Shown here in pieces: positions 1-2,866 of a stretch of 15,807 nt of DNA; positions within the stretch are counted from its first letter, which is position 1, and the number at the start of each line of letters is the position of its first letter. The translations under genes and the position numbers were made by a program. The stretch comes from an uncultured archaeon. Lineage in GTDB: Archaea; Iainarchaeota; Iainarchaeia; Iainarchaeales; GCA-2688035. The notes under the pieces were generated by a model that saw nothing but the letters and a program-made list of their open reading frames with translations, was not told the origin of the DNA and ran no database searches. The DNA lies in assembly GCA_964354805.1 (NCBI GenBank), contig CAYHBD010000046.1, positions 1 through 15,807 of the forward strand, given 5' to 3'.

Positions 1-480
1 TGTTACCTCAAGCACCTTGTTCCCTTTCGTTACAGCCACGCCGCTTTTCATTGCCTCTTCTCTTGTTCCCTTGTAAAGAAGGATCTGCATTTCTTCCTTG
101 TTGCGCTCGAATTCCTCCGCAAACGGCTTCAGGGATTCAAAGACAATGTTGTCGCCGTTGATTGAAATGAATTTATCCTCGCCGACAAAATCTTCCGCAA
201 GGGCGATTGCGCTTGGGATTCCGCCTGCCTCGTCCTGCACCCTGTAAGTGAATTTTACGCCGAAATCTTTTCCGCTTCCAAGGTGTGCAAACAAATCCCC
301 GGCATGGTAAGTTCCGGTTATAATCAGAATGTCCTTAACGCCAGCACTTTTCAGCATCTCAATCGGATAGTAAATCATCGGCTTGTTGTACACTGGAAGA
401 AGATGTTTGTTGGTCGCTTTGGTCAAGGGAAACAGCCTGCTCCCAGTGCCTCCTGCAAGAATTACTCCTCTTAATGTCAT
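1..480 (-). CDS. rmlA: Glucose-1-phosphate thymidylyltransferase (sugar nucleotidyltransferase), 5' part; runs off the left window edge
   Basis: Missing from the ORF track. Manual translation from ATG at 480 gives MTLRGVILAGGTGSRLFPLTKATNKHLLPVYNKPMIYYPIEMLKSAGVKDILIITG...RVQDEAGGIPSAI...INGDN, the RmlA signature GGxGxRLxPxT..K.LLPV..KPMI. The frame is open to position 1. An AGGAGG SD lies in the last codons of the upstream gene. Confidence 0.92.
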   Translation of the reverse strand, partial: MTLRGVILAGGTGSRLFPLTKATNKHLLPVYNKPMIYYPIEMLKSAGVKDILIITGTYHAGDLFAHLGSGKDFGVKFTYRVQDEAGGIPSAIALAEDFVGEDKFISINGDNIVFESLKPFAEEFERNKEEMQILLYKGTREEAMKSGVAVTKGNKVLEVT

Positions 481-481
481 T

Positions 482-1189
482 TCATCGCCTCCTTGCAAAT
501 TTCTTTAGCCTTCTCCGGATTTTTTTAGCTTTGTGTTCTCTGTAAACGCTTCTTAAAAAAGCGCCCTCAATTTTGCCAGCCATTACCCATGGCTTCATTT
601 TGAGGGGGACCTTTTGTTTAAAAAACACCGTGCTTGAATAACCTTTCTTTGCCAGGATTTGTTTGACTGACCTTACATGCAACAGCCCCATCACAGCATA
701 ATCTGGTCTTTTTTTGATGATTTCTTTTGCAATAAAATTCTCTGTTACAGGCACCTCAAACAAGTTGGCTTTATGAATCTGACGAATCGCCCCCAAGAGA
801 TTTTCAGGGGTTGAAGACAAATCGCTTCTTAATATTTCTCTTTCAATTCTGTCCGAGCCCAAGGCAACGCATTGCCCGCCGGCTTTCTTAACGCCTACAA
901 ATACTTTGTAATAAAACAAGAGCCAACTTTCATTGGCTTCAATGTTTTCCCATGCTTCTCTTGTGGAAGTGGGAAGTTTTTTTAATTCGCTTTTCGCTGC
1001 TCCCTCCTGTGTCCTTTTGAATTCCATAAAGTCTTTATCCACTCTCAAATACGTGGAAGCAATCAAAGCAAGCGCTGTTGGTGTAATCGCAAGACCCACA
1101 GTTTGCCTTCTTTTCAAATCTCGCAGGGCTTTTAATATTTCAGCTGCGGATTTTTGTTCAATCTTAGCTCCAATCAACTTTGTAACCAT
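482..1189 (-). CDS. Hypothetical basic protein (~235 aa), possibly a degenerate TraB/Tiki/EreA-like fold
   Basis: Long ORF co-oriented with rmlA and ending 1 nt before its ATG. Start moved from 1216 to ATG 1189 (MVTKLIG) because a GGTGA SD precedes it and the upstream codons belong to the duplicated rmlB end. C-terminal 'ENFIAKEI...AVMGLLHV' resembles the family GxxH motif (weak). Confidence 0.7.
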   Translation of the reverse strand: MVTKLIGAKIEQKSAAEILKALRDLKRRQTVGLAITPTALALIASTYLRVDKDFMEFKRTQEGAAKSELKKLPTSTREAWENIEANESWLLFYYKVFVGVKKAGGQCVALGSDRIEREILRSDLSSTPENLLGAIRQIHKANLFEVPVTENFIAKEIIKKRPDYAVMGLLHVRSVKQILAKKGYSSTVFFKQKVPLKMKPWVMAGKIEGAFLRSVYREHKAKKIRRRLKKFARRR

Positions 1190-1193
1190 CTTC

Positions 1194-1245
1194 ACTTCAC
1201 CAACTGTTTCCACCATTTTTCATTTTCTTTATACCACTGCACTGT
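1194..1245 (-). repeat. Direct-repeat copy A: detached 3' end of rmlB (reads TVQWYKENEKWWKQLVK-TGA)
   Basis: 1194-1245 matches 1897-1948 at 48/52 nt, with perfect blocks of 20, 15 and 11 nt. After a 2-nt indel the match continues through CCATCT (1186-1191 vs 1891-1896). Confidence 0.95.
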
Positions 1246-1259
1246 CCTGTTTTGATATG

Positions 1260-1266
1260 TTTAAAT
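1260..1266 (+). promoter_or_regulatory. Putative archaeal TATA box (TTTAAAT) for the leaderless small ORF at 1291
   Basis: TTTAAAT lies 25-31 nt upstream of ATG 1291, the spacing expected for a leaderless archaeal transcript. Confidence 0.5.
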
Positions 1267-1290
1267 TTGTTTTGCTGCACAGTTTTTTGT

Positions 1291-1401
1291 ATGAATAAAA
1301 AAGAGAGGGTAAGGGCTTTTATTGCCTCTGTGGAGGAGGCTAAAAAAGACCCTGAGTTTAGGCGTTCTATTCGACAATTCATCAAGTATCACACAACCTA
1401 A
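1291..1401 (+). CDS. Small 36-aa protein, putative partner or antitoxin of the PIN nuclease
   Basis: Manual translation: MNKKERVRAFIASVEEAKKDPEFRRSIRQFIKYHTT*. It shows helix-DPEF-helix amphipathic patterning, has a TATA box upstream, and overlaps the PIN gene 3' end convergently by 20 nt. It is shorter than any ORF in the supplied track. Confidence 0.65.
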   Translation: MNKKERVRAFIASVEEAKKDPEFRRSIRQFIKYHTT

Positions 1402-1894
1402 CTATTTTTTTGAAGTTCTCATAATCGAAAAAGGTTGGCGTCCTAATCAAGTGCTTTCCGTTTACTACTTTATAGCTGTCCATGGCTTTCTTTGAGAGCA
1501 TTGTTCTTTTGTCTTCGCTTACCACTATATCAAGGTTTTTTAATGTAGCCGAAGCAACTATAAGAAAATCGTTTTTTATTTCATGCCAGCTTTGGACTCC
1601 TTTATTGTTCTTAAACTCTTTGAAATATTCTTCTGCCAATGCCTCGATTTTTTTTGTCACCTGAATAAAGTGTTTTCCTACAATCAAGTCGAAATTGTTT
1701 AGCAACATCACCCTGCTGCTATATTTGCCCGCTGTTCTTTTCCCTTTCGGAGTTTCTCTTAATTCGTTTCTAATTACAGAATTTCCATAAATGATAACCT
1801 TATTGCCACTTGTTATTTTTTCAACCAAGTCAAGGTCAAACTCAATAACAAAACCATAAATGTTTGTATCCAACAAAAGCCGTAATCTAGCCAT
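1382..1894 (-). CDS. PIN-domain (VapC-like) ribonuclease
   Basis: PIN acidic tetrad motifs: LLLDTNIY, VIRNEL, NDFLIVASA, IVVSED. The ATG directly abuts the rmlB stop. Confidence 0.88.
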   Translation of the reverse strand: MARLRLLLDTNIYGFVIEFDLDLVEKITSGNKVIIYGNSVIRNELRETPKGKRTAGKYSSRVMLLNNFDLIVGKHFIQVTKKIEALAEEYFKEFKNNKGVQSWHEIKNDFLIVASATLKNLDIVVSEDKRTMLSKKAMDSYKVVNGKHLIRTPTFFDYENFKKIVRLCDT

Positions 1895-2857
1895 CTACTT
1901 CACCAACGGTAGCCACCATTTTTCATTCTCTTTATACCACTGCACTGTTTGATGCAGCCCTTCTTTAAATGCAGTGCGCGGTTTCCATCCCAATTCTTTT
2001 TTTATTTTGCCGCTGTCAAGGCTGTACCTCAAATCGTGCCCTGGCCTGTCTGTAACACGCTGAATCATTTCTTCTCCCTTGCCCAATTCTTTCAAAATCA
2101 TTTTTGTTAATTGAATGTTCTGCAATTCATTGCCGCCTCCGATATTGTAGATTTCCCCTGCTTTTCCCTTTTGCAGCACTAAATCAATTGCCTCGCAGTT
2201 GTCCATTACAAAAATCCAGTCCCTAACATTTTTTCCTTCACCGTACAATGGAACCTTTTTGTTCTGCAGCAGATTTGTAATGAATACCGGAATCACTTTT
2301 TCCGGAAACTGGAAAGGGCCATAGTTATTGCTGCTGCGAGTTACAATAACCGGCAGCCCATAGGTTGAATGATAGCTCATTGCAAGCAGCTCTCCGGCTG
2401 CCTTTGCAGCGCTGTATGGATTGCGCGGGTGCAGGGCATCTGTTTCCCTGCTGCTGCCTTTTGGGATTTGCCCGTAAACTTCGTCAGTTGAAATCTGGAT
2501 GAATTTTTCAATGTCCTGCTTTCGCGCTTCCTCACACAATACTTTCACTCCGAAAAAATTCGTTTTCACGAATGAATCCGCATCAGCAATTGCCCTGTCG
2601 ACATGGCTTTCCGCAGCAAAATTTATTACTGCAGAGCAGCCCTGCATTGCTTTTGCAGCATCGCTTGAACTGCAGATGTCCCCTTTAACGAAACTGTAAT
2701 TTTCGTTTCCTTCAATGCCCTGCAGGTTTTCCCTGCGCCCTGCGTATGTTAATTTATCCAAATTCACGACTTCAGTTTCAGGGTGCTTTTCAATGAACTG
2801 CCTGATGAAGTTGCAGCCAATGAATCCGCATCCGCCGGTGATAAGGATTTTTTGCAT
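1895..2857 (-). CDS. rmlB: dTDP-glucose 4,6-dehydratase
   Basis: Motifs TGGCGFIG, NLDKLTYAG, FAAESHVDR, ISTDEVYG, YSAAK, SSNNYGPFQFPEK, DRPGHDLRY. Start set at ATG 2857, which follows a GGTGA SD. Confidence 0.97.
   Translation of the reverse strand: MQKILITGGCGFIGCNFIRQFIEKHPETEVVNLDKLTYAGRRENLQGIEGNENYSFVKGDICSSSDAAKAMQGCSAVINFAAESHVDRAIADADSFVKTNFFGVKVLCEEARKQDIEKFIQISTDEVYGQIPKGSSRETDALHPRNPYSAAKAAGELLAMSYHSTYGLPVIVTRSSNNYGPFQFPEKVIPVFITNLLQNKKVPLYGEGKNVRDWIFVMDNCEAIDLVLQKGKAGEIYNIGGGNELQNIQLTKMILKELGKGEEMIQRVTDRPGHDLRYSLDSGKIKKELGWKPRTAFKEGLHQTVQWYKENEKWWLPLVK
1897..1948 (-). repeat. Direct-repeat copy B: current 3' end of rmlB (TVQWYKENEKWWLPLVK-TAG)
   Basis: 48/52 nt identical to 1194-1245. 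Confidence 0.95.
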
Positions 2858-2866
2858 TTTTTTCAC

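Follow-up and report, generated by a model that had tools for sequence, protein, structure and literature searches.

How modules of the toxin-antitoxin type move between chromosomes without mobility genes is poorly understood, and a clean scar left by one of them is informative in this respect. We describe such a scar at rmlB on contig CAYHBD010000046.1 of an uncultured archaeon of the order Iainarchaeales, where two copies of the end of rmlB enclose a short unit carrying a predicted PIN nuclease gene. The question raised by this locus is how the unit came to lie inside an operon with rmlB intact. The window, meaning all of the DNA analysed, is the whole 15.8-kb contig (C46) of genome G000 (1.38 Mb in 49 contigs, 88.5% complete), and 196 genomes of the order formed the comparative set. 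Named homologues, from Pacearchaeota and Ainarchaeum, indicate a DPANN-type archaeon. Read along the minus strand, the locus runs rmlB, the PIN gene, an open reading frame (ORF) of 36 amino acids (aa) on the plus strand, a second rmlB tail, a 235-aa ORF, and rmlA. We consider it somewhat probable that this layout stems from an old, one-time insertion of a two-gene selfish module, with a long target duplication, at the rmlB stop in the rmlB-rmlA operon.

The end of rmlB is present twice

A repeat finder returned a 52-nt direct repeat at 1194-1245 and 1897-1948, 48/52 identical and 703 nt apart, as had been described in the original prediction, which was made from the letters of the DNA alone. 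Self-comparison by BLAST gave an E value of about 6e-16 for this repeat, and a genome-wide look for the 52-mer found just two copies in the 49 contigs. With a 2-nt indel the match reaches 1183/1888 (63 nt, 89%), and at the other end a gapped match (ATCAAA-CAG) carries the repeat to about 1256, the gapped part at 1246-1256 being ATCAAAACAGG. The rmlB-side copy (1897-1948, minus strand) consists of the final 17 rmlB codons plus the first base of the stop. The far copy (1192-1256, minus strand) has 17 intact codons at 1245-1195 followed by TGA at 1194-1192. As first reported, the two tails are different alleles, TVQWYKENEKWWLPLVK-TAG (..WWLPLVK) at the true rmlB end and TVQWYKENEKWWKQLVK-TGA (..WWKQLVK) in the far copy. 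Of the two, it is the rmlB-side copy that still functions as the end of rmlB, and the far copy is a non-coding relic, whose frame lacks a start codon preceded by a ribosome-binding site and is closed upstream by a TAA at 1263-1261.

Each stop is followed closely by a start codon, in agreement with the earlier description: the ATG of the PIN gene (1894) lies 0 nt past the first stop, and an ATG at 1189 lies 2 nt past the second (TGA-AG-ATG). Within the LVK codons of both copies is the motif GGTGA, positioned 5 nt upstream of the PIN ATG and 7 nt upstream of ATG 1189. GGTGA is complementary to the 3' end of the genome's own 16S rRNA (GGATCACCTCCT), and its frequency upstream of long ORFs is 6.7% versus 0.7%, an enrichment of about 10-fold. 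The complementarity and the enrichment bear out the proposal that the tail is a source of ribosome-binding sites. Going by sequence, GGTGA at 1907-1903 is the predicted ribosome-binding site of the PIN gene and GGTGA at 1201-1197 that of the displaced next gene; rmlB is intact and its spare tail is reused.

The insert (~650 nt) contains only two genes. The gene for the PIN-fold (VapC-like) nuclease (1382-1894, minus strand, 170 aa) abuts the rmlB stop with its ATG, and the 36-aa ORF (1291-1401, plus strand) converges on it with a 20-nt overlap at the PIN 3' end. The insert's GC content is 35%, versus 44% genome-wide and 44.5% in rmlB. That the locus holds an inserted unit without an integrase, whose repeats are the rmlB tail, was already part of the original prediction and agrees with these results.

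If the module inserted in the way that we favour, a PIN toxin-type nuclease gene and a convergent 36-aa partner with its own promoter would have landed exactly at the rmlB stop, and the target duplication would have been at least 52 nt and probably about 62 nt, equal to the last 17-20 rmlB codons. The rmlB-side copy would still end rmlB, its LVK codons (GGTGA) driving PIN translation in tight coupling to rmlB on the operon transcript, and the far copy would preserve the start context of the displaced gene along with its ribosome-binding site, so that the operon would still work. Consistent with this, the PIN gene probably has no promoter of its own at this site and would be coupled to the rmlB stop and read off the rmlB transcript. 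Recombination between the two copies could precisely delete the cassette, which would explain a patchy distribution, and would restore an intact rmlB, as had been pointed out before. We infer a single insertion event, this route of insertion, and loss through the repeats from the comparisons given below. Such a locus also illustrates how an operon can tolerate an insertion of this kind.

The rmlB tail is conserved across genera, and thus the 92% identity between the two copies gives no date for the event. The far copy matches the window's own rmlB tail at 47/51 positions, the tail of G001 at 46/51, and the tail of G021 at 46/49, and it is 1-2 changes off the family consensus. A candidate argument, that the event is recent because no tail is nearer to the far copy than that of its own rmlB, was rejected, since 47/51 compares with 46/51 to another genus.

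The same cassette in two other genomes

When the collection was scanned, a single-protein query found nothing and an alignment query found only two further genomes, G016 and G173; a metagenome scan returned G016 again plus two distant matches. G016 (JBAZQI010000003.1), from another genus of the same family, aligns colinearly with the window along 1630 nt (73.6% identity), from rmlB through the PIN gene and small ORF into a damaged tail copy. G173 (CAYOAS010000087.1), from another family, has the same order of rmlB, PIN gene, and partner. The relic is complete in the window and decayed in both of these genomes: deletions of 3 and 13 nt have destroyed the frame in G016, where the stop is also lost, and in G173 the relic is reduced to ..CAG-GGTGAA. 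Each of the three genomes, then, shows the scar at a different stage of decay. The junction ATATCAAAACAG is common to all three relics, as is an extra A (ATCAAAACAG versus ATCAAACAG in rmlB). Because three genomes from two families have this relic junction and the extra A in common, the insertion appears to be old and to have a single origin, and the candidate of a recent event was rejected on the shared cassette, junction, and extra A.

The shared layout also bears on whether the window might be an assembly chimera of two haplotypes, one with rmlB joined to the PIN gene and the other with rmlB joined to the 235-aa gene (called ORF244 here, after its longest reading). The genome is a fragmented metagenome-assembled genome of 49 contigs, with the contig end inside rmlA only 1.2 kb away, and many contigs with close PIN homologues are short (744, 1250, and 2335 nt). 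However, the gene order and the relic at this junction recur in two independent assemblies made in other studies, and the junction at 1245/1246 has ~9 nt in common with rmlB, too short for a mis-join in a k-mer graph. We find a chimera hardly credible.

The 3' part of the relic, AACAG(TT)GGTGAA, is the sole stretch kept in all three genomes. This fits the retention of the relic 3' end as a putative ribosome-binding site for whichever gene follows, and the following gene does vary: ORF244 in the window, a 96-aa ORF and then rmlA in G016, and rmlD and then an rmlA-like gene in G173. The conserved stretch, together with the nearness of the window relic to the family consensus, would also be expected if the far copy were a selected leader, that is, a 5' untranslated region or upstream ORF coupling translation of ORF244 and rmlA. 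In G016, however, the frame is destroyed by the two deletions and the loss of the stop, G173 keeps the ribosome-binding site only, and the relic frame has no start codon with a ribosome-binding site, so only the ribosome-binding part seems to be constrained. A selected leader is very unlikely on this evidence.

A stronger alternative is that homologous recombination alone spread the cassette. The two tails would act as built-in homology arms, with either a double crossover (within rmlB on the left, and between the relic and the recipient's tail on the right) or a Campbell-type integration of a 703-bp circle. With a double crossover, the right-hand portion of the window relic would be the recipient's own, recently functional tail. 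The relic is near-intact in the window and decayed in G016 and G173, its decay in the window is confined to the left end (indels at 1246-1256), and a different gene lies past the relic in each genome, all of which would follow from such a history. The distribution is indeed patchy, with the cassette in 1/7 genomes of the genus of G016 plus one genome of another family, and the start of P0040 (MVEAAGGMKM; see below) suggests that genes of the ORF244 type lie directly behind an rmlB tail elsewhere. Against recombination, no mosaic signal was found in rmlB: sliding identity over 20 genomes was an uninformative ~70% everywhere, and cassette-bearing genomes were no closer to one another in the 3' part of the gene. 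The KQ codons, which are present in the window relic and in both tails of G016 (true and relic), make the middle of the relic look cassette-derived and not recipient-derived. Recombination also leaves the origin of the first duplication unexplained. We regard it as a real possibility, though one that we would not expect to be correct.

The sharing of KQ is slight evidence for a lineage of tails that is tied to the cassette. It also bears on the earlier suggestion that the allelic differences favour acquisition from another strain, which did not hold: KQ occurs in G016 as well, and the far copy is nearly as close to the tail of another genus as to its own. A fourth rmlB-PIN junction may be represented by P0007, which opens with MVERDGELKM, the rmlB tail in another frame; its context is read from these N-terminal residues only.

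The slot between rmlB and rmlA

Orthologues of rmlB (68-79% identity) adjoin rmlA in 19 genomes of the family, and 17 family genomes were informative for the slot between the two genes. In 9/17 the slot is empty, with rmlB followed directly by rmlA and a single tail, and in 2/17 there is a gap of 90-175 nt. Other passengers occupy the slot in 5/17, and the PIN cassette does so in one (G016). These other passengers are NUDIX genes (G020 and G017), LAGLIDADG/helix-turn-helix (HTH) endonuclease-like genes (G004 and G019), and a 102-aa ORF (G009). No tail repeat was found beside the other slot passengers in these family relatives. As the original prediction required of a genuine insertion, relatives do show empty sites and alternative passengers, and the same layout comes from independent assemblies. 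Its suggestion of an accreting array of [tail + passenger] units, however, failed, since there is one extra tail only and the other slot passengers lack one. Rather than an array of tail-and-gene units, the interval from the rmlB stop to the rmlA ribosome-binding site is a place where selfish genes recur, which makes the rmlB-rmlA junction, part of a surface-glycan locus, a hot spot for them in this archaeal family.

The slot genes with LAGLIDADG_3 and HTH domains are free-standing and homing-endonuclease-like (G004, L026:107-1048; G019, L033:2965-3810).

The PIN gene and its 36-aa partner

The PIN protein had no sequence-level match in Pfam, NCBIfam, PADLOC, or a PDB sequence search; one of its homologues matches PF01850. 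Its AlphaFold model has a predicted local distance difference test score (pLDDT) of 93, and the top Foldseek matches of this model, with probability 1.0, were VapC, FitB, and PIN proteins from Pyrococcus. Homologues share four conserved acidic residues, D9, E44, D109, and D128. By predicted fold, the passenger is a putative PIN nuclease, as originally proposed.

The 36-aa ORF, which had been overlooked, has orthologues at the equivalent position in G016 and G173 (67% and 64% identical), and most PIN paralogues of the order, at about 30 loci, are faced tail to tail by a homologue with the motif EAKKDPEF..FIKYHT. The 36-aa protein had no match to any family library. To judge from this conservation, the ORF is a real gene and a conserved partner of the PIN gene. 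Its product is a candidate antitoxin, a toxin/antitoxin relation being suggested by fold, pairing, and distribution.

Upstream of the small ORF is a non-coding block (1250-1275) that is near-identical in alignments of G000, G016, and G173 and carries a TATA-like TTTAAATT ~27 nt upstream of ATG 1291. The block is probably the promoter of the small ORF, which would be transcribed as a leaderless mRNA. The exact 22-mer at 1251-1272 is confined to the same three genomes among the 196; as a probe for cassette copies at other sites in these genomes, it found none. A search of the window for known RNA families found none.

The module is multi-copy, with up to 7 copies per genome and a presence in 31/196 genomes of the order. 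PIN proteins linked to rmlB are 65-79% identical to that of the window, and paralogues are <50% identical. A rule by which the PIN module always abuts an upstream stop was considered and rejected, since tight coupling is seen in only 4 of about 35 loci.

Several of the paralogous loci have features of their own. A second PIN/small-ORF module of G000 lies in the tryptophan operon between trpD and trpC (L018:4388-5003; G000:C7:26514-27002), where the PIN ATG overlaps the trpD stop (ATGA) and no tail repeat was found. In G038:C1 (L008:300-2130), two tandem PIN modules with a repeated ~85-nt upstream region lie next to a divergent sugar epimerase gene, and both PINs have the N-terminal extension MPVFYSFLFT. 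In G013:C51 (L011:803-2988), four copies of a ~30-45-nt motif (…CCCGGCGGGGGGCAATATGTTTTTATA) surround a PIN paralogue; this motif looks like a repeated promoter element.

Repeats around paralogous modules and the route of insertion

Repeats that bracket the module were found at 5/36 paralogous modules versus 3/150 random control segments, a comparison in which kin are not independent, and none of the control repeats reached 50 nt at 90% identity. In G112:C97 (L054:477-1363), a 5S rRNA gene (Rfam, 70.5 bits) is immediately followed by a PIN module, which is flanked by perfect direct repeats of 21 nt beginning at the 3' end of the 5S gene. In G124:C21 (L056:1144-2356), a PIN module and its partner lie between 54-nt direct repeats of 98% identity. 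Taken together, the repeats at paralogous modules give modest support to insertion with target duplication.

Some integrative elements target the 3' end of a gene, usually a tRNA gene, and carry a replacement end, leaving attL and attR. By analogy, the two rmlB tails could be the attL and attR of a minimal element that brought a replacement rmlB tail and was moved in trans by a tyrosine recombinase. The identical site and junctions in three genomes would accord with this. Of the recombinases that the original prediction suggested looking for elsewhere in the genome, the tyrosine type gave two PF00589 matches only (C45 at 164 bits, probably of the Xer type, and C10 at 38.5 bits), and the serine type gave none, the genome having no match to PF00239. 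No recombinase lies in the cassette or on the 15.8-kb contig, however, and neither the tail nor the 22-mer occurs at any other site in the 196 genomes. The paralogous modules lie at unrelated sites, with repeats variable in length or absent, and the relics in G016 and G173 decay freely, as if att function were not maintained. Like integrative elements of this type, the cassette has direct repeats derived from a gene 3' end and leaves the target gene intact; unlike them, it is only 0.7 kb long, has no integrase in or near it, and has repeats that decay in relatives, and no circular or second-site copies of it were found. We consider site-specific integration unlikely.

The known process closest to the insertion that we favour is the 'insertion with long target duplication' described for restriction-modification gene complexes (Nobusato et al. 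2000, Gene 259:99; Furuta, Abe and Kobayashi 2010, PMC2853133). That class is defined by a flanking, target-derived repeat of >30 bp, an insert of <20 kb without mobility genes, a repeat that is unique, and a related genome with the target present once (PMC2853133); no archaeal case passed the published screen (PMC2853133). The rmlB cassette agrees with four of the five listed criteria, the empty site being seen only at family distance, and departs from the fifth, which calls for restriction-modification cargo. Like the published insertions, it is a small selfish unit with neither transposase nor integrase, has unique, target-duplicating repeats of >30 bp, and has relatives, at family distance, with a single target; some published repeats likewise overlap the 3' end of a gene. 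In contrast to them, the cargo here is a PIN toxin-type pair and the host an archaeon, the insertion lies at a stop codon inside an operon with the spare copy now supplying the next gene's ribosome-binding site, and it is seen in three diverged genomes instead of as a within-species polymorphism. In the literature searched, the class is described for bacterial restriction-modification genes, and toxin-antitoxin or archaeal cases were not found. The rmlB locus would extend this bacterial mode of insertion to a predicted toxin-type cassette in small-genome archaea.

A number of observations weigh against such an insertion. The relic of the window is near the family consensus, and if the event is as old as the ~25% divergence of PIN between genomes, a neutral relic should have decayed. 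Its intactness would call for constraint, for gene conversion, or for homologous recombination that brought the cassette in again later, each of which is possible. No bracketing repeat is present at 31/36 paralogous modules, and ~30 nt of the G124 repeat recur at three places in the sister genome G127, so this 54-nt repeat may be a dispersed repeat. A same-species empty site, in the form of a junction of rmlB with ORF244, was not found, and the relatives are ~30% diverged in DNA. Finally, the class described has bacterial restriction-modification cargo, and its enzymology is unexplained.

A more far-reaching idea is that the PIN/36-aa module is a recombinase-free mobile element whose landing sites are transcription-unit 3' ends (the rmlB stop, the trpD stop of G000, and the 5S rRNA 3' end of G112) and which duplicates tens of target bases. 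The target copies would then serve as portable homology arms for spread or loss, possibly helped by breaks made by the LAGLIDADG endonuclease-like genes of the slot. We put this forward as a speculation and think it rather doubtful.

Comparison with VapBC modules and integron cassettes

Like VapBC type II modules, the unit has a VapC-like PIN fold with conserved acidic residues and is small, multi-copy, AT-rich, and patchy. Unlike them, it has no upstream, co-transcribed DNA-binding antitoxin (RHH, AbrB, PHD, or similar), rmlB being directly upstream, and the sole partner conserved with it is the 36-aa protein, whose gene faces the PIN gene tail to tail from the other strand and overlaps it by 20 nt. 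Integron gene cassettes are likewise promoterless passengers on an upstream promoter, and as with them the slot has differing passengers in relatives. However, the rmlB unit has no attC hairpin, attI, or IntI, and its repeat is host coding sequence. A search of 1150-2000 found no inverted repeat, and no integrase was found on the contig.

Neighbouring genes

The rmlB gene (1895-2866, minus strand; stop TAG at 1897-1895) encodes an extended SDR of the dTDP-glucose 4,6-dehydratase type, with Pfam matches to GDP_Man_Dehyd (2.7e-77) and Epimerase (3.2e-63). Its longest ORF opens at GTG 2866, and the likelier start is ATG 2857. At the other end of the locus, the 5' part of rmlA (1-480, minus strand), cut by the contig end, encodes a glucose-1-phosphate thymidylyltransferase (Pfam NTP_transferase, 2.7e-33).

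ORF244 (482-1189, minus strand) lies between the relic and rmlA, and its stop is 1 nt before the rmlA ATG. As called from 1216, it is a 244-aa ORF that opens with MVETVGEVK, which is the rmlB tail in another frame; the real start is ATG 1189, giving 235 aa. The last codons of ORF244 and its TGA (478-500) overlie GGAGGCGATGAA-ATG, the rmlB-rmlA spacer in G007, which suggests that ORF244, too, is an insertion, placed after the rmlB stop and ahead of the rmlA ribosome-binding site. In P0040, a homologue 35% identical to ORF244, the protein opens with MVEAAGGMKMVTKL (MVEAAGGMKM), back-translating to W-W-K-x-L-V-E-TGA-AA-ATG. This N-terminus is the tail in another frame, so a relative of ORF244 would sit right behind an rmlB tail, going by the N-terminal residues only. 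No further tail copies were found behind genes of the ORF244 family in 30 loci.

The gene had been called an orphan, which did not survive an exhaustive search: ten remote homologues were found, with E values from 1e-17 to 3e-4, and one of these relatives matches PF01963 (TraB_PrgY_gumN) at 2e-5. The ORF244 model (pLDDT 76) has weak fold matches to HopBA1, PMT, RRSP, EreC, and ChaN, all of which we take to belong to the TraB/PrgY/GumN (Tiki/EreA/ChaN-type) superfamily. ORF244 may be a diverged member of a small family with affinities to this superfamily, although the indication is weak. Relatives of ORF244 open with MVTKLLGVAH (GxxH motif), and the window copy has GAKI, without that His. It keeps the second motif (PDYAV.G..H), and its C-terminus is very basic.

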